Positions 33,519 to 39,467 of a stretch of 48,490 nt of DNA are shown piece after piece (the first letter of the stretch is position 1; each line of letters begins with the position of its first letter). The stretch is from Lambdavirus PDP110P1. The translations under genes and the position numbers were made by a program. The notes under the pieces were generated by a model, which did not search any database, was not told the DNA's origin, and worked only from the letters and a program-made list of their open reading frames with translations. Location: the sequence record OZ035751.1. One strand, 5' to 3'.

Positions 33519-34407
33519 CCTCCAGTTTTGCTTTGCATTCTGCGTAAATGGCTTGTACGTTCTGCTGCAATTTCATTCCAGATGTCAGGCGATATGCTTC
33601 TGCAAAATATCGCTTCAAATCATCCATGTTTTCTGCCTGAGCCATTTCATCACAAAGAAGTTGAGCTTTTTCCATAATTTCCTGCTGGCGTTTCCGTTCA
33701 TCTTCGCGGATATCTTCCTCTGATTTGTGCGGCATAACTGGTTCAGTCCATACACCTTCTTCTTCGTTTAGTACGTGAATAGCACTATCAAGACGTGATG
33801 CCTTAGGCCAATACTTGCTTGCACGCTTTACGACCGTCTTTCGCGCCATCTCATTCCAGTGATTTACCCATGGTCCTTTATCGCTGAATGCCGCCTTGCT
33901 TGTTTTCCTTACAGCCTCAATTTCAGCCAGACTCATCTCTTCCGTTAGATAATCACCTGCTGGCGTCTTAACTGTGCAGTAAACGCCAACGATATCACCA
34001 CGATCACCGAAGGCGTTGTATTTATGGGTTGGTGCTTTATCAAGCCCGTTTGACTCATAGGTATCGTTAGCATGAACAAGTTTTGCCTGACCCCATGAGA
34101 TAACACCAGACTCCATTGCAATATGGAGCAATCCCATATAACTGATATCAAGGCACACCATGCCGTCGCGCGGAACCAGATAAGCCAGTTTGCTAGCCGG
34201 GTTTAAGGTGATGCCGATCGCCGCAACATTGATGATGGCGTTCTGTGCGCTGGTTGGATTTGCCAGTGCTGTTTTAGCCAGGTAATCATTTTTCTGGAAA
34301 TACTGAATTGCAAACTGGCTTTCCTTAGCCCATGTCACCGTCTGTTCAGTCAATGCTCCGCAGAATAACTGCTCTTGCTGTTTAACGAATTCAACGATAT
34401 TGCTCAT
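33496..34407 (-). CDS. recT: RecT-family single-strand annealing recombinase
   Basis: 303 aa; segment GPWVNHWNEMARKTVVKRASKYWP matches the conserved RecT region. Confidence 0.8.
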   Translation of the reverse strand: MSNIVEFVKQQEQLFCGALTEQTVTWAKESQFAIQYFQKNDYLAKTALANPTSAQNAIINVAAIGITLNPASKLAYLVPRDGMVCLDISYMGLLHIAMESGVISWGQAKLVHANDTYESNGLDKAPTHKYNAFGDRGDIVGVYCTVKTPAGDYLTEEMSLAEIEAVRKTSKAAFSDKGPWVNHWNEMARKTVVKRASKYWPKASRLDSAIHVLNEEEGVWTEPVMPHKSEEDIREDERKRQQEIMEKAQLLCDEMAQAENMDDLKRYFAEAYRLTSGMKLQQNVQAIYAECKAKLEVASEQTI

Positions 34408-34715
34408 GCTGCTTCTCCAAAAATGTGTCTGCGTTTGAATATTGCGAAGGCATATTCAGCCTTAACTCTTTTGGTTATTGCATCCCAGAACCATTCAGCG
34501 GCTTTTTCCTGATAGTCACAGTCATCATCTTCCAGCCAGTCGATAGCGTCCTTAGTGTGTTCATCTGGCTTATATGAGCGAAGCATTTCGCTTATTGGGT
34601 CACAACGTTTGCAGAGGCGATCAACTTCACTGTTGATTCGTTCGTAATCTTCATCAGTAAAACTTGCGATGATTTGCGATATTTCACGCTTATCATTCAG
34701 AGTCAGAATCATCAT
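34404..34715 (-). CDS. hypothetical protein (upstream of recT)
   Basis: 103-aa acidic protein, ATGA-coupled to recT. Confidence 0.45.
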   Translation of the reverse strand: MMILTLNDKREISQIIASFTDEDYERINSEVDRLCKRCDPISEMLRSYKPDEHTKDAIDWLEDDDCDYQEKAAEWFWDAITKRVKAEYAFAIFKRRHIFGEAA

Positions 34716-34800
34716 CTTTCTCCTGTTCTTTGTGCTGATTGAGCATTTTGTTCATCTGACGAATGAATTCTTCGTCTGACCAGTTATCTGTAAAACTCAT
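34693..34800 (-). CDS. small hypothetical protein
   Basis: 35-aa ORF, start overlaps upstream stop (CCATGA). Confidence 0.3.
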   Translation of the reverse strand: MSFTDNWSDEEFIRQMNKMLNQHKEQEKDDDSDSE

Positions 34801-34967
34801 GGACGGCCTTGTTGTTTCAAAATATCCCAAAGCTTTTCGAGCAAACTTTTCATTCTTGGTTGTTTAAAGTCTGCTCCGGTTAAAATATTTTTTCGTGAAT
34901 GCTGCACCGATAAAATCGGGTTGAAAGGGCGAACCGATGCCGCCCCTGCAATAGCGAACTGTTGCAT
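34797..34967 (-). CDS. cIII-like small protein (putative)
   Basis: 56 aa; RBS GAAGGAG; N-terminus MQQFAIAG and C-terminal LWDILKQQG resemble lambda CIII. Confidence 0.35.
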   Translation of the reverse strand: MQQFAIAGAASVRPFNPILSVQHSRKNILTGADFKQPRMKSLLEKLWDILKQQGRP

Positions 34968-35030
34968 AGGATGCTCCTTCTGTTTGATTGCATAACGAAA
35001 ACGCCTCGAGTGAAGCGTTATTGGTATGCA

Positions 35031-35057
35031 TATAAAAAAGCCCTCACATTAGAGGGC
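35031..35057 (-). terminator. rho-independent terminator
   Basis: on - strand: GCCCTC-TAATGT-GAGGGC followed by TTTTTTAT. Confidence 0.6.
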
Positions 35058-35193
35058 AAAGAAGATTTCCAATAATCAGAACAAGTCGGCTCCTGTTTAG
35101 TTACGAGCGACATTGCTCCGTGTATTCACTCGTTGGAATGAATACACAGTGCAGTGTTTATTCTGTTGTTTATGCCAAAGATAAAGGCTACCA

Positions 35194-35394
35194 TCAGGCA
35201 GCCTTGTTATTCTGTTTACCAATTTCTCTGGCAATCATTGCCGTCGTTCGTATTGCCCATTTATCGACATATTTCCCATCTTCCATTACAGGAAACATTT
35301 CTTCAGGCTTAACCATGCATTCCGATTGCAGCTTGCATCCATTGCATCGCTTGAATTGTCCACACCATTGATTCTTATCAATAGTCGTAGTCAT
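35194..35394 (-). CDS. ral: Ral-like restriction-alleviation protein (putative)
   Basis: 66 aa, four-Cys motif CGQFKRCNGCK…C; same size and position relative to N as lambda ral. Confidence 0.5.
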   Translation of the reverse strand: MTTTIDKNQWCGQFKRCNGCKLQSECMVKPEEMFPVMEDGKYVDKWAIRTTAMIAREIGKQNNKAA

Positions 35395-35464
35395 ACGGAT
35401 AGTCCTGGTATTGTTCCATCACATCCTGAGGATGCTCTTCGAACTCTTCAAATTCTTCTTCCAT
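35378..35464 (-). CDS. small acidic peptide (putative)
   Basis: 28-aa ORF MEEEFEEFEEHPQDV…, RBS GAGGTG, overlaps the ral-like start. Confidence 0.3.
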   Translation of the reverse strand: MEEEFEEFEEHPQDVMEQYQDYPYDYDY

Positions 35465-35572
35465 ATCTCACCTCAAATAAGTGGTTTGCTGCCTAATTTC
35501 ATTTTCTGGCGACCAACACAAGTCACACCCATTTCACTGCGTGGCTTGCGGTAGTAAATTAGGTTTTTTCAG

Positions 35573-35600
35573 ACAATAAAAAACCCACCGAAGTGGGCTA
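35573..35600 (-). terminator. rho-independent terminator (tL1-like)
   Basis: on - strand: CCCAC-TTCG-GTGGG followed by TTTTTTATT, just after the 114-aa gene stop. Confidence 0.65.
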
Positions 35601-35942
35601 TGACCATTTTTTATTTGGATTTCGTTGGTGAGCGTGATTAACAACTCTGTGCATTACATCCTCATATTTTTCATCTTCAATTTTTTCGACATCGCGAGGA
35701 AATGGTGTTGCTAATGCTTTGTCAACTTTATCCATTGGGTCTTCATTAATCTTATATTCAGGACCGTCATCTATAGCATTAAATCCAGGTGTTACACCGT
35801 TTTTTAATGCATATGCTATCCTCTTTTCCCATCTCGCTATTCTCCTCCTGTCTCGAGATGTAAGACCTCTATCAGATACTTTTCTGTTTTGTCCGCGGTC
35901 AGGATTAACATAAATAGTCTTTTTCACCATAAGCATACTCAA
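35598..35942 (-). CDS. hypothetical protein (first gene after N)
   Basis: 114-aa hydrophilic ORF, ATGA overlap with N. Confidence 0.45.
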   Translation of the reverse strand: MSMLMVKKTIYVNPDRGQNRKVSDRGLTSRDRRRIARWEKRIAYALKNGVTPGFNAIDDGPEYKINEDPMDKVDKALATPFPRDVEKIEDEKYEDVMHRVVNHAHQRNPNKKWS

Positions 35943-36274
35943 TAAGCACCGTACGGTAGTTTACTGTACAATTTTATTTTTTGGACTGCATGTATTTTGT
36001 TTCCTAATGGGTTTGAATCTTTGTAATAAATACTTCTATTTTTTCGAACGACTTCTTCTTTCTTCTTGCAGCAAAGGATTCCTAGTGATGCTGCTTTGTC
36101 TGCTTTGACGCAACCAGAGAGCTTTAGCGCAATTTTTCGCGCCAGTGCTTCATTACTGCGTCGCTCGGCAATAAGTTCTGCTCTGCGAGCTTTGTAGCGG
36201 CTTTTTGCCGTACCTTTGGATTCTTTCCAGACAATGGTTACCATGATGGTCTCCTTTAAGTGGCTTTGGCGCAT
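35939..36274 (-). CDS. N: antitermination protein N
   Basis: 111 aa; N-terminal arginine-rich motif GTAKSRYKARRAELIAERR; first gene of the leftward operon, downstream of a nut-like site. Confidence 0.75.
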   Translation of the reverse strand: MRQSHLKETIMVTIVWKESKGTAKSRYKARRAELIAERRSNEALARKIALKLSGCVKADKAASLGILCCKKKEEVVRKNRSIYYKDSNPLGNKIHAVQKIKLYSKLPYGAY

Positions 36275-36349
36275 GACGCGTCGAGGTGCTTATCTTCTCG
36301 ATCGCTGTCTTGCAGCTGCAATTCGCGCCATCCCCAAAACCACTCAAGT

Positions 36350-36396
36350 TCTGGTCTCAACGGTTAGGTTGAGAGTCCGTCGATGTTAAAGAGCCT
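36350..36396 (-). promoter_or_regulatory. nutL (boxA and boxB)
   Basis: on - strand boxA GGCTCTTTAA, then 11 nt later hairpin TCTCAAC-CTAACC-GTTGAGA. Confidence 0.6.
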
Positions 36397-36435
36397 GCCA
36401 ATCTGTTCCGTTTGGCTTCCAGCGTCCTGCTGATG

Positions 36436-36530
36436 GAAATGATAGTCACATATTGTGATTTAATGGTCAATCACAAAATGTGTAAAATAAAGGTGTGACA
36501 CGTTATGTGTATGATTTTTTTGTGTAAATA
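36436..36530 (-). promoter_or_regulatory. OL/pL region
   Basis: repeated TCACA…TGTGA operator-like inverted repeats and a leftward -35 TTGACC / -10 GACTAT candidate. Confidence 0.5.
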
Positions 36531-36720
36531 GTTTTACCCGCGATGGTTTTGCTTACTTAAGTCGGTGGCAACAGCAGGATGGGTGCTGAAAAGTTCGAAA
36601 AACGAGCGAAGGTGGTGGTGGCGAGATGGCGGGATATGGGAGTTGTATTAAGAATTATAGTAATTTAATCAATAGTTTGGACCGGCGGGCAGGTGCTGTC
36701 CTGATAGTGATCGGCGGACA

Positions 36721-36751
36721 ATAAAAAACCCGGCTCGGTGGCCGGGTTTAT
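36721..36751 (-). terminator. rho-independent terminator ending the cI operon
   Basis: CCCGGC-TCGGTG-GCCGGG hairpin flanked by A-run and T-run, immediately after the 216-aa gene stop. Confidence 0.75.
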
Positions 36752-37402
36752 TTATTGCTTAGGAGCTTGTTGTGATGACGATTGGTTAGTTGGAGCGCTC
36801 GTTAATGGTTGCTGTGTCGGTACCTGTATTATAATTGGAGCCGGGCTGGTTACTGATGGTGACTTGTCATTGCCGGAGATAATCCAACTTGAGGCTAACA
36901 TCACGCCAGACAGAATCACAGTAACTAAAGTCAAGCCAACGGCCATCGCCCACTGAGTCGTTGTAAGTCCCGTTTTCAAACCGCCGATTTCACCTTTAAT
37001 TTCAGCAATACCTCTCTCAATAGAAGAAAATTGCTGAGTATAATAGGTTTTAAAGTCAGCTGATTCGCGACGCATTTCCGCAGCAATAGACTCTACCTCT
37101 GATTTGTTTTGTGAAAGCTTTGCGTCAAGTTCTTCTCTGGACATTCCGCTCACGCTTACCTCCAGGGTATCACTCTTCATCGCTACATCTTCCTTACTTG
37201 GGCGCAAACCCGTTTCGTCCATGGCGTATGAAACTCTATTTGATACCTTAGCATCAATACCAATACTTTGGTACTGAGATGGATCCCCATAAGGAGAAAC
37301 GGTTGTCGCTGCTAGGGTTGCACTAACTATAATACTTGGAAGAACTGATGATGTTGTTCCTGAGGTAGGTTGAACTGAAGAAACTGGCTTCAGTCTTTCC
37401 AT
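36752..37402 (-). CDS. coiled-coil, single-pass membrane protein (third gene of cI-distal cassette)
   Basis: 216 aa; Ser/Thr-rich N-terminus, central charged helical region, hydrophobic helix WAMAVGLTLVTVILSGVMLASSWII, Pro/Gln-rich C-terminal tail; start overlaps upstream stop. Confidence 0.5.
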   Translation of the reverse strand: MERLKPVSSVQPTSGTTSSVLPSIIVSATLAATTVSPYGDPSQYQSIGIDAKVSNRVSYAMDETGLRPSKEDVAMKSDTLEVSVSGMSREELDAKLSQNKSEVESIAAEMRRESADFKTYYTQQFSSIERGIAEIKGEIGGLKTGLTTTQWAMAVGLTLVTVILSGVMLASSWIISGNDKSPSVTSPAPIIIQVPTQQPLTSAPTNQSSSQQAPKQ

Positions 37403-37656
37403 AGCCCATTATCCCTGAGAGCTACCTGTAATGATTTTACTAATGCAACAGCTTGATCCGGGCTCATTGAGACTGACATGTTAGGGGTCAACTCAACTTT
37501 TACTTGGAAGCTATTATTTCCTTGCTCATCAGACTGCATGTGATGCTCAAATTCATGGCGGTAAAAAGTAATGATTGTTTCAGCACGATCAGGCGTAATA
37601 AGAACTGATGTGGCGGTCATGTGCTGAGGTATGATTTTAATAGTGTTATCTGACAT
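37390..37656 (-). CDS. small soluble protein (second gene of cI-distal cassette)
   Basis: 88 aa from ATG 37656 with RBS AAGGAAAC; track ORF extends to 37797 without an RBS. Confidence 0.45.
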   Translation of the reverse strand: MSDNTIKIIPQHMTATSVLITPDRAETIITFYRHEFEHHMQSDEQGNNSFQVKVELTPNMSVSMSPDQAVALVKSLQVALRDNGLWKD

Positions 37657-37848
37657 AAGTATCCTTTTTGTTTCCTTAGTATTTTTTTGCATTGACATCA
37701 GAAATAGCGAATCCACAAGAGTATGAGTAAAGCTAATCAGTTTAGTGATACGGTGACTATTAAAGTGGTAAACCACATCAAAGCTCGCAGAGTGCATACC
37801 AGGCTGTCACACATGACAAAGTAACGAGGATGCCTGATCTCATAGCGC

Positions 37849-38004
37849 TCAAAGAGACATGCCGATAATGGCATTAACCACGCATGACGCCATAAACACG
37901 CCGCCAACGATGAAGCTGGCTTGGTTCTTCCTGGTAGCGCCAAGAGTCAACAGAACCACTGAAAGGGCAAAAAAAGGTATCGCGATTATGCTGAACGTGT
38001 TCAT
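37849..38004 (-). CDS. small two-helix membrane peptide (first gene after cI; putative)
   Basis: 51-aa ORF MNTFSIIAIPFFALSVVLLTLGATRKNQASFIVGGVFMASCVVNAIIGMSL with RBS GAGGT 5 nt upstream; below the track size cutoff. Confidence 0.35.
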   Translation of the reverse strand: MNTFSIIAIPFFALSVVLLTLGATRKNQASFIVGGVFMASCVVNAIIGMSL

Positions 38005-38081
38005 GTTGACCTCAACTTATTTCGATTCTCCATCACCCTTAATCCGCCGCCCCATGTGTTTGTTGTGATTCGTTGCTGGCC

Positions 38082-38726
38082 TTAACCAAACGTCTCTTCA
38101 GGCCACTGGCTGGCGATAACTTTCCCCACAACGGAACAACTCTCATTGCATGGGATCATTGGGTACTGTGGGTTTAGTGGTTGTAAAAACACCTGACCGC
38201 TATCCCTGATCAGTTTCTTGAAGGTAAACTCATCACCCCCAAGTCTGGCTATGCAGAAATCACCTGGCTCAACAGCCTGCTCAGGGTCAACCAGAATTAA
38301 CATCCCGTCAGGAAAACTAGGTTTGGATCCTGTTGGCGCGGTCATGGAATTACCTTCAACCTCAAGCCAGAAAGCTTTTTCGCTGGCTTTTGTGGTCGTT
38401 GGGACCCATGCCTTTGCATCGCTGGCTGTGTAGCTTCCCACCTCCGAAAATGGCCCGGCCTGCACTGAAGAAAATAACGGGTATTCATATTGGCGAAATA
38501 CGGCGTCTGAATCCTCGCCAAACATTATTTTTGCCGGAGATACGCCGAGTGCCGCCCCAAGAACCAGCGCGTCATCCGCGCTAACCTTTCTTGTTCCTAA
38601 CTCGTAGTTCCCCAGGCGTGAAGGCGCAGCCCAGCCGCAAAGCTTGGCCAATTGAGCCTGGCTAAGTCCTTTAGCTTCTCTAAGGGACTTGATCCTTTCC
38701 CCGATAATTTCATGCATCGTTTTCAT
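38082..38726 (-). CDS. cI: CI-type repressor (HTH plus LexA-like S24 peptidase domain)
   Basis: 214 aa; N-terminal HTH (…[24 protein letters not shown]…), C-terminal autocleavage domain; divergent from cro across operators. Confidence 0.85.
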
Positions 38727-38834
38727 CCCTTAAATGTAACACGCAACGTGATTGAACTCTGTACACGAATTGAGGTTGACTGTTAATCACAAATTGTGTG
38801 TAATGGGTGTGTGATTAATGCTAGGGAGACCGCA
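38727..38834. promoter_or_regulatory. OR operators with divergent pR/pRM
   Basis: pR candidate TTGACT-N17-TGTAAT (38776-38804); operator-like repeats AATCACAAATTGTGTGTAAT and GTGTGATTAAT. Confidence 0.6.
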
Positions 38835-39053
38835 ATGAACAAAATTGCCCAGCAGCGAAAAAAAATCGGAGTTTCGCAAGCTGTACTAGCTTCAGCAATT
38901 GGTTGGGGGCAATCCCGCATCGCCAACTATGAGCTGAATATCCGTACTCCTGGCCTTAACGATTGCCGAATGATCGTAGAAGGCCTCAGGAAGTTAGGGT
39001 GCCAATGTTCTTTGGATGATGTTTTCCCTCCATCCAGTAACAAAGCCGCCTAA
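38835..39053 (+). CDS. cro: Cro-like repressor
   Basis: 72 aa from ATG 38835 (RBS GGGAGA); HTH …IGVSQAVLASAIGWGQSRIANYEL…. Confidence 0.7.
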   Translation: MNKIAQQRKKIGVSQAVLASAIGWGQSRIANYELNIRTPGLNDCRMIVEGLRKLGCQCSLDDVFPPSSNKAA

Positions 39054-39060
39054 GCAGTAC

Positions 39061-39101
39061 CCGCTCTTTAACAGTCATGGCCTTTCACCTCTAACCGGGT
39101 G
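39061..39101 (+). promoter_or_regulatory. nutR (boxA and boxB)
   Basis: boxA CGCTCTTTAA, then hairpin TCACC-TCTAACCG-GGTGA; loop shares CTAACC with nutL. Confidence 0.6.
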
Positions 39102-39170
39102 AGCAAACATCAGCGGCAAATCCATTGGGTGTGCCGCTATAACTCAATATCAATATAGGAAAATTAACAA

Positions 39171-39467
39171 ATGGCACAAGCAAGCTACAGCAAGCCAACA
39201 CAGCGAGAAATTGATCGCGCTGAAACTGATTTACTCATCAACCTGTCAACGCTTACCCAGCGCGGTCTGGCAAAGATGATTGGCTGTCATGAATCGAAGA
39301 TAAGCAGAACGGACTGGAGATTTATTGCTTCGGTCTTGTGTGCTTTCGGAATGGCATCAGACATCAGTCCGATTAGCAGGGCTTTTAAGTATGCGCTTGA
39401 TGGACTCACCAATAAAAAACGCCCGGCGGCAACCGAGCGTTCTGAACAAATCCAGATGGAATTCTGA
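39171..39467 (+). CDS. cII: CII transcriptional activator
   Basis: 98 aa; C-terminus …LTNKKRPAATERSEQIQMEF matches lambda CII, N-terminal two-thirds divergent. Confidence 0.8.
   Translation: MAQASYSKPTQREIDRAETDLLINLSTLTQRGLAKMIGCHESKISRTDWRFIASVLCAFGMASDISPISRAFKYALDGLTNKKRPAATERSEQIQMEF
39412..39440 (-). terminator. oop-type terminator antisense to the cII 3' end
   Basis: on - strand a GC-rich hairpin followed by TTTTTTATT, at the position of the lambda oop terminator. Confidence 0.45.

Follow-up and report, generated by a model that had tools for sequence, protein, structure and literature searches.

Immediately downstream of its cI repressor gene, Lambdavirus PDP110P1 (sequence record OZ035751.1; the whole stretch of 48,490 nucleotides that was analysed is referred to here as the window) carries a cassette of three genes that encode a 51-amino-acid membrane peptide (p51), a small soluble protein (gp49) and a membrane protein (gp48). 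The cassette, at positions 36,721 to 38,081, appears to be accessory cargo, probably expressed in lysogens, in a repressor-adjacent slot and is laid out as a soluble protein plus a membrane protein. Its central element is the gp49-gp48 pair, a candidate anti-phage system, which belongs to a family of modules in which the small partner protein and the N-terminal segment of the gp48-like protein are swapped as one unit against a conserved, membrane-anchored core. An initial annotation of the locus had placed three open reading frames (ORFs) on the minus strand directly downstream of cI, in the position of rexAB in phage lambda, and had pointed to a GAGGT ribosome-binding site, a 13-nucleotide (nt) overlap of the last two genes and a strong terminator at the end of the cassette. 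The ORFs, the binding site, the overlap and a hairpin with its T run are all present, the repressor is a protein of 214 amino acids (aa) with helix-turn-helix (HTH) and S24 domains, and the cassette occupies the interval from cI to pL/N, lies on the cI strand and ends at the terminator. The features of the locus are as follows (pLDDT, predicted local distance difference test; AF2, AlphaFold2).

38082-38726, minus strand: cI-type prophage repressor, 214 aa, with HTH_3/HTH_31 and Peptidase_S24 domains (Pfam, E 4e-29)
38005-38081, minus strand: intergenic region between cI and p51 with the GAGGT ribosome-binding site, seen in the sequence; it holds mosaic junctions seen in other phages
37849-38004, minus strand: p51, an ORF for a small membrane protein of 51 aa with two predicted hydrophobic helices
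37657-37848, minus strand: spacer of 192 nt between p51 and gp49, in which scans of the sequence detected no feature
37390-37656, minus strand: gp49, 88 aa, soluble partner of sequence family A, with coordinates identical to those of HK97 Gp49
37390-37402, minus strand: 13-nt overlap of the gp49 stop and the gp48 start, ATGGAAAGACTGA, seen in the sequence
36752-37402, minus strand: gp48, an ORF of 216 aa
37148-37402, minus strand: gp48 residues 1-85, variable N-terminal segment, predicted to be disordered (pLDDT <50 in AF2)
37049-37144, minus strand: gp48 residues 87-118, near-invariant family helix SREELDAKLSQNKSEVESIAAEMRRE... (alignments; pLDDT 80-84)
36953-37048, minus strand: gp48 residues 119-150, coiled-coil stalk whose length varies in the family, ending at the invariant Q150 (AF2, alignments)
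36878-36952, minus strand: gp48 residues 151-175, single C-terminal transmembrane (TM) helix or tail anchor, hydrophobic segment WAMAVGLTLVTVILSGVMLASSWII
36755-36877, minus strand: gp48 residues 176-216, tail rich in Pro, Gln and Ser with a PIIIQVP motif, predicted from the sequence to be periplasmic
36726-36749, minus strand: Rho-independent terminator, with a stem of 9-10 bp (6 GC) followed by a T run

Head and core of the gp49-gp48 module

A small partner ORF lies directly upstream of the gp48-family gene in all of the variants examined (33/33), and the two genes either overlap by 4 or 13 nt or are separated by a gap of 5-8 nt. The 13-nt overlap of the window, which suggests translational coupling of gp49 and gp48, is also found in Klebsiella locus L004 and in L041, and the other partner families have the 4-nt overlap or the gap of 5-8 nt. 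The partners are drawn from at least four unrelated families. Family A comprises gp49-like proteins of 87-92 aa; families B, C and C2 are proteins of 84-108 aa; family D proteins are β-rich and of about 145 aa; family E is of the Zn-ribbon type; and one further partner is a singleton. Profile comparison with hhalign indicates that B, C and C2 are homologous (95-97% probability) and that D and E are unrelated, and gp49 aligns in a colinear yet weak manner with C2 (E 1.8e-4) and C (E 9e-4). No Pfam or NCBIfam domain, and no recognisable antitoxin or DNA-binding domain, was found in gp49 and seven other partner proteins; a resemblance of the partner pattern to DUF3467 was considered and, with no Pfam match to back it, is not claimed. 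A gp49 homolog in Klebsiella has 66% identity and an identical layout. The AF2 model of gp49 (pLDDT 67.5) consists of three long antiparallel strands and a C-terminal helix, a fold class that includes oligomerisation domains (COMM) and nucleic-acid-binding domains (PC4/Pur-alpha).

Similarity among the N-termini of gp48-family proteins tracks the partner family, with 65 similar pairs within partner families and none among the 358 possible pairs across them. Distinct N-terminal motifs accompany each type of partner: (I/V)VSATLAA is found with gp49-type partners, VDAFxMPAYHEK with C-type partners, and LKVxGGSDFEAEFDNS with D-type partners. The relatedness of the cores, expressed as a normalised bit-score ratio, follows a different pattern. 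The core ratio is 0.96 between L094 (partner B) and L096 (partner D), and values of 0.83-0.89 are reached by L050 (E), L045 (C) and L051 (D); the HK97-type core is nearest to a B-type locus (0.61-0.68) and not to other A-type loci (0.30). Conversely, L003 and L071 have near-identical partners (non-synonymous divergence, dN, 0.04) and very different cores (dN 0.47). Because core relationships are incongruent with partner type, the covariation of N-terminus and partner is not simply shared ancestry, and its explanation as a mere by-product of common descent was rejected. Synonymous sites are saturated in both partner and core, with dN of 0.1-0.5, and both are under purifying selection; the N-terminal linker of gp48 has a ratio of non-synonymous to synonymous divergence (dN/dS) of 0.14-0.64, higher than that of core or partner.

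The gp48 family was delimited by an exhaustive profile search of representative clusters at E <= 1e-3, from which 54 diverse members were sampled for alignment. It comprises 196 clusters at this threshold and 105 at E <= 1e-10, all of about 130-270 aa. A word-indexed homology search gave small families, with 11 clusters for gp48 and 6 for gp49; the former count is misleading, because the exhaustive search reached 196. Members come from Serratia, Yersinia, Morganella, Leclercia, Klebsiella, Kosakonia, Xenorhabdus, Sodalis and Buttiauxella, are all named 'hypothetical', and have a taxonomic range that corresponds to the Enterobacterales; all 54 sampled members are assigned to phrog_5820.

Across this family the N-terminus is variable in length (20-110 residues), and in gp48 it carries IIVSATLAATTV, a motif confined to members whose partner is of the gp49 type. 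The family helix that follows has the consensus S-R-E-E-L-D-A-K-L-x-Q-N-K-A-E-V..V-A-x-E-M-R-x-E-M-A, in which E91 and E102 are invariant and A94, L96, N99 and K100 nearly so among the 54 aligned members. In the AF2 model of gp48 one continuous helix extends from residue 89 to 176, with pLDDT of 80-84 at residues 90-120 and below 50 at both ends of the protein. The distance from the family helix to the TM helix ranges from about 42 to 151 residues, and two heptad-spaced series hold 66 of 111 proteins where about 32 would be expected by chance, as a continuous coiled-coil stalk would give. The C-terminal TM helix, with an invariant Q just ahead of it, is kept in the family members inspected. 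The tail beyond it is less constant: the motif P-[IV]-I-I-Q-V-P is found in 41/111 members, and in 17/111 the tail is of 8 residues or fewer. Since gp48 has no signal peptide and one C-terminal TM helix, standard topology rules predict that it is tail-anchored with its bulk in the cytoplasm; it should thus be a C-tail-anchored inner-membrane protein in which the N-terminus, helix and stalk are cytoplasmic and the tail is periplasmic. Sub-threshold matches to the CCDC90-like/DUF1640 family (PF07798) at the coil-plus-TM end occur in 7/10 members (12.6 bits against a cut-off of 33.5; best E 0.0016), an architectural resemblance only, which may reflect coiled-coil and TM composition.

The 1.4-kb stretch has 99.6-99.7% nucleotide identity to HK97 (NC_002167, 99.6%) and HK225, and is found at 99.5-99.9% identity in about 52 of 5,426 complete E. 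coli genomes. Given this near-identity, the gp48 and gp49 ORFs are already known: the 216-aa and 88-aa ORFs are HK97 Gp48 and Gp49, with identical gene coordinates and annotated without function, and they match the PHROG profiles phrog_5820 (E 9.6e-69) and phrog_26809 (E 4.1e-62), both of unknown function. The initial annotation had put the cassette forward as a candidate for an undescribed system and could place its proteins in no known family. The genes of the two larger proteins are annotated in HK97, so that 'undescribed' applies to their function alone, and these two proteins do fall into PHROG families, though profile searches link them to no characterised one. Scans of p51, gp49 and gp48 against Pfam, NCBIfam and PADLOC gave nothing significant (PADLOC-DB v2, 0 matches for the three window proteins), and sequence-profile searches of the PDB with the gp48-family and partner alignments returned coiled-coil noise only. 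Judged by the accessible literature, four points are new: the recognition of the 51-aa gene, the extent of the gp48 family, its obligate placement behind cI or Mnt and the exchangeable partner head.

Placement behind the lysogeny repressor

Related loci were searched for with a 10-sequence gp48-family alignment, and genomic context was surveyed in 39 distinct variants from 80 viral contigs together with six loci obtained by protein look-up. In 32 of the 39 variants a CI-type repressor gene on the same strand ends 291-904 nt upstream; all ten upstream repressors that were sampled have a Pfam-confirmed HTH domain, and 7 also have an S24 domain. In three more (3/39) the upstream gene encodes a repressor of the Mnt/Arc ribbon-helix-helix kind, and arc, a P22-type antirepressor gene or both are transcribed divergently; the upstream protein of L049 has both Arc and Repressor_Mnt domains. 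These Mnt/Arc loci form a P22 immI-like region (L049 4050-5790, L052 3902-5834 and L094 3052-5099), and in L094 a further ORF, of 95 aa, separates the repressor from the partner gene. The neighbours of L068 and L092 (2/39) give no assigned repressor context. Only 3 loci turned up when about 100,000 species-representative genomes were scanned once, all with the gene order repressor, partner, family gene.

A terminator is present 3′ of the family gene in 29/33 variants. The stem ACCCGGCC...GCCGGGT often recurs after gp48-family genes, from L003 to L096, despite highly diverged proteins, which suggests that either the module or the slot carries this terminator along when it is inherited. The module consistently makes up the last two cistrons of a transcription unit headed by a lysogeny repressor. 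Because it follows cI or Mnt, the case for expression in lysogens is considerably strengthened; this placement is the strongest argument at hand for lysogen expression, if an indirect one.

Within the window, Shine-Dalgarno sequences are found 5 nt 5′ of the p51 ORF (GAGGT) and upstream of the gp49 ORF (AAGGA), the latter starting with the ATG at 37656 in a maximal ORF of 135 aa. A consensus scan of the coding strand from cI to the terminator found no sigma-70 promoter, although a weak promoter could escape such a scan, and upstream of the terminator at 36726-36749 the same scan found two weak terminator-like hairpins and nothing stronger; in the intergenic region between cI and p51 (38005-38081) it found no terminator. 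The 192-nt spacer has no promoter at the scan threshold and no Rfam match, as is the case for the whole region searched with Rfam (36000-39300). Its RNA fold z-score is 0.51, and this, together with the absence of a consensus promoter, led to the rejection of a structured RNA or internal promoter in the spacer. The spacer is missing from loci without p51, in which the partner gene begins 25-100 nt past the repressor. The cassette is thus probably co-transcribed with cI by read-through from the cI promoter, and the terminator at 36726-36749 would close the repressor-side transcription unit. On the other side of the slot, an N-like gene is located at 35939-36274, and N is annotated in HK97.

The boundaries of the mobile block come from a comparison with 22 HK97-type viral contigs. 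On the left its edge is constant, at about 36720-36725, at the base of the terminator, and the other edge varies, lying at 38399 inside cI (HK97-type), at 38106 (HK225-type) or at 38057 (L018 and L019). At least four repressor contexts are found next to the identical block, and p51, gp49, gp48 and the terminator are therefore exchangeable cargo in the rex slot. The suggestion of the initial annotation that the cassette looks horizontally acquired is borne out by these junctions and contexts. The AT-richness relative to its neighbours, on which that suggestion was based, is real on one side only: cI has a GC content of 50.5% and the window as a whole one of 50.6%, and the cassette, at 43.4%, is in the 6th percentile of stretches of its size, but the neighbour on the pL side (34000-36700) is as AT-rich as the cassette, at 42.5%. 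Morons are inserted extra DNA with deviating GC content, their own terminator and their own promoter active in the repressed prophage (PMC3594210). In the sense of Juhala et al. (2000), deviating GC content and a terminator are both present here, and the block moves among repressor contexts.

The window cI is itself a hybrid: over its C-terminal ~100 aa (S24 domain) it is identical to HK97 cI, but in its N-terminal DNA-binding domain the similarity is only distant. With a recombination junction near 38399 and a different N-terminal domain, the repressor is expected to combine a different immunity specificity with a shared cleavage domain. The 3′ end of cI in mEp234 and HK106 also matches the window (98.6% over 70 bases spanning the stop codon). 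Beyond this match, the slot between cI and pL is filled in mEp234 (L097 1558-2688) by hicAB and a gene for a 141-aa hypothetical protein, with no gp49 or gp48, and likewise in HK106 by hicAB and a hypothetical gene. The interval between cI and N is a mosaic hotspot that holds RexAB and BstA (PMC8585504). In a Yersinia intermedia prophage (L003 3746-4691), genes for two paralogous proteins of ~133 aa with an N-terminal TM helix are located between cI and the partner/gp48 pair; these paralogs are further cargo of the same slot. Elsewhere in the window, positions 1-24000 (structural and lysis genes) are 92-96% identical to temperate Klebsiella phages, for example ST15-VIM1phi2.1, and with a Klebsiella-like left half and an HK97-like immunity region the element is therefore an inter-genus mosaic.

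Proposed function and the standing of p51

The favoured interpretation, which is advanced tentatively and with rather less than even confidence, is that gp49-gp48 defends the lysogen against other phages, with a cytoplasmic head that senses or confers specificity and a coiled-coil/TM core that serves as the constant membrane effector. Here, gp49 and gp48 would be read through from the cI promoter in lysogens, and gp49 would most likely bind the short motif in the disordered N-terminus of gp48, so that partner and cognate motif form an exchangeable head on the constant membrane-anchored core. The head would sense a cytoplasmic trigger, upon which the coiled-coil/TM core would compromise the membrane, in a logic like that of RexA/RexB and with no homology to them. 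A wider claim, which is conceivable and rather doubtful, is that the pair is the founding example of an unrecognised two-component family of prophage defence, with tail-anchored effectors, interchangeable sensor heads and lysogen-only expression behind cI or Mnt, in which a swap of the head changes the phages that are sensed.

Several points weigh against defence. The slot downstream of cI also carries cargo not related to defence, such as toxin-antitoxin (TA) modules, and two variants (L039 and L007/L040) adjoin immI genes in other orientations and are not downstream of the repressor. All loci were found in prophages or viral contigs beside a phage regulator, and none in a chromosomal defence island, so that the argument from association draws on only one kind of slot. 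Co-transcription with cI is deduced solely from the absence of consensus signals. In PADLOC the 54 gp48-family members give scattered weak matches only, to coiled-coil-rich proteins such as LmuB, JetC and ZorA, no member matches a known defence model, and the functional evidence is all positional. Full-text literature searches found no accessible paper that addresses gp48/gp49, and no functional data. Lastly, the lone TM helix has few polar residues and forms no obvious pore.

A lysogen-expressed module of regulation or host physiology would account for some of the same observations, and is considered unlikely. In that case gp48, with no action directed at other phages, would be a membrane tether, either for its partner or for a factor from host or phage. 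It could thereby influence induction, the timing of lysis, cell division or envelope stress, or confer a lysogenic-conversion trait. Tight linkage to both lysogeny repressors, cI and Mnt, is in keeping with such a role, as are the tail-anchored coiled-coil architecture with its docking motif, the weak sub-threshold CCDC90-like/DUF1640 resemblance in 7/10 members, and a gp49 fold class that spans COMM oligomerisation and PC4/Pur-alpha nucleic-acid-binding domains. However, the module is dispensable: it is missing from most lambdoid phages, other cargo is found beside the same cI C-terminal domain, and it is exchanged among immunity types. The swapping of unrelated partners also speaks more for an arms race than for a regulatory circuit that is conserved.

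Superinfection exclusion at the level of DNA entry, in which gp48 in the inner membrane, with or without p51, would block genome injection and gp49 would be an assembly or stabilising factor, is given a still lower probability. HK97 gp15, P22 SieA and T4 Imm are inner-membrane blocks of phage genome injection, and gp48, with its predicted inner-membrane location and a periplasm-facing PIIIQVP motif in 41/111 members, could be placed among them. Some family members follow Mnt in an immI-like region, where sieA is located in P22. HK97, moreover, already uses the small membrane protein gp15 in this manner (PMC3594210). Against this, the parts that vary as a specificity determinant would (partner and N-terminus) are predicted to be cytoplasmic, the most conserved element is a cytoplasmic helix, and the periplasmic tail is essentially missing in 17/111 members and so is dispensable in part of the family; for these reasons cytoplasmic sensing is favoured over a periplasmic block of DNA entry.

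An addiction or TA-like module, with gp48 as a membrane toxin and the upstream partner as an antitoxin that acts on the toxin N-terminus, would serve prophage stabilisation, possibly with TA-type abortive infection as a side effect. The tight coupling of a small gene to a larger one that follows it, a partner and N-terminus whose co-inheritance implies a cognate pair, and the presence of hicAB in the same slot of mEp234 and HK106 all agree with this arrangement. It is nevertheless improbable, in that the partners have no recognisable DNA-binding antitoxin domain in Pfam and gp48, at most a putative toxin, matches no toxin family. One 'toxin' core would also have to be matched by unrelated partner folds, and the core is not what covaries with the partner.

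The initial annotation had treated p51, gp49 and gp48 as a single system, and this does not hold for p51. The p51 ORF is left unannotated in HK97 and HK225. About 35 clusters of homologs were found, nearly all of exactly 51 aa and with 67-98% identity, in Atlantibacter, Raoultella, Enterobacter, Kosakonia, Lelliottia and Klebsiella. Comparison with three chromosomal homologs gives substitutions at the first, second and third codon positions of 8/4/26, 13/6/35 and 12/7/35, mainly at the third, and a ratio of synonymous to non-synonymous codon changes of roughly 2:1. The constant length across ~35 clusters and the third-position bias identify p51 as a real gene, apparently under purifying selection. 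HK225 annotates weak opposite-strand ORFs where p51 lies; a 69-aa plus-strand ORF (37859-38068), antisense to p51, is the annotated HK225 gp45, an annotation that is probably wrong because the codon-position pattern backs the minus-strand p51 frame.

Homologs of p51 are mostly chromosomal and outside prophages, for example near pmrD in Atlantibacter and after a RIO1 kinase gene in Lelliottia; in Kosakonia one is near a prophage tail-tip gene. In Klebsiella michiganensis (L013/L014 3755-4183) the p51 homolog, 60 aa as called, begins 4 nt past the stop codon of dinI, which suggests co-expression with this SOS gene. DNA homology of p51 to the chromosomal copies is confined to the ORF and ends at its boundaries, and capture together with chromosomal flanks was therefore discarded. 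Among gp48-family loci p51 is found only in the HK97-type block and is missing from L004 and L041-43, despite their gp49-type partners; this restriction and the stand-alone chromosomal homologs eliminate it as an obligate third component. It is most plausibly an independently acquired small membrane protein of chromosomal origin. That p51, gp49 and gp48 form one three-component Rex-like system, as their constant movement as one block between repressor contexts in E. coli phages might imply, is hence very improbable, given homologs that mostly stand alone, homology that stops at the ORF and absence from every family locus not of the HK97 type.

The interpretation of gp49-gp48 as a defence module has consequences for a model phage. 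Genes 48 and 49 of HK97 are without function in any source searched, and the adjoining 51-aa gene is missing from the annotations of HK97 and HK225; the comparative picture turns an anonymous ORF pair into a concrete hypothesis that is testable in standard strains. If the module is a defence system, it would represent a new effector type, a single-pass tail-anchored coiled coil, with a natural 'plug-in sensor' design, and it would widen the notion that slots next to repressors, in immC as in immI, are hotspots given over to defence in lambdoid and P22-like prophages. Otherwise it would still be a widespread membrane module of prophages, probably expressed in lysogens.

Comparison with known systems

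A parallel in position and layout is the RexA/RexB abortive-infection system of lambda, which lies on the cI strand in the interval from cI to pL/N, is closed by a terminator, combines a soluble with an inner-membrane protein, and is likewise variable lambdoid cargo. RexB is a polytopic protein with four TM segments and RexA is of ~279 aa. In contrast, gp48 combines a single C-terminal TM helix with a long coiled coil on the cytoplasmic side, the partners are of 84-160 aa (gp49, 88) and the partner gene comes first. Homology to RexA/RexB was not found in Pfam or PADLOC, with no match at E <= 1 beyond unrelated weak ones, on the assumption that both libraries contain Rex models.

With P22 and its SieA/SieB proteins and immI region (mnt-arc-ant), the family shares the position of some members directly downstream of a true Mnt homolog with arc/ant divergent, and the Sie proteins are membrane proteins expressed from the prophage, as is predicted for the gp48 family. 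Scans of Pfam, PHROG and PADLOC revealed no homology between them. HK97 gp15 is a superinfection-exclusion moron derived from the chromosomal YebO family (PMC3594210). It is comparable to p51 in that both are small inner-membrane proteins of one phage lineage, with homologs that for the most part are non-prophage genes on the chromosomes of Enterobacteriaceae (PMC3594210); gp15 differs in sequence family, in its location in the tail operon rather than the immunity operon, and in having a known role in exclusion.

CCDC90-like/DUF1640 proteins (PF07798) resemble gp48 in having a coiled coil followed by one C-terminal TM helix, although the matches are far below the curated cut-off. HicAB of mEp234 and HK106 is, like gp49-gp48, a two-gene unit, and it occupies the identical slot downstream of a matching cI 3′ end; the proteins are unrelated, HicA being an RNase toxin and gp48 a predicted membrane-anchored coiled coil. 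BstA, an abortive-infection protein of prophage BTP1, is encoded downstream of cI with conserved synteny and is presumably expressed from the repressor promoter (PMC8585504). Unlike the pair described here, BstA consists of one soluble protein, which localises to sites of phage replication, and the window proteins have no PADLOC or Pfam match to it; what gp49-gp48 and BstA have in common is a conserved position downstream of the repressor and, presumably, a promoter shared with it.

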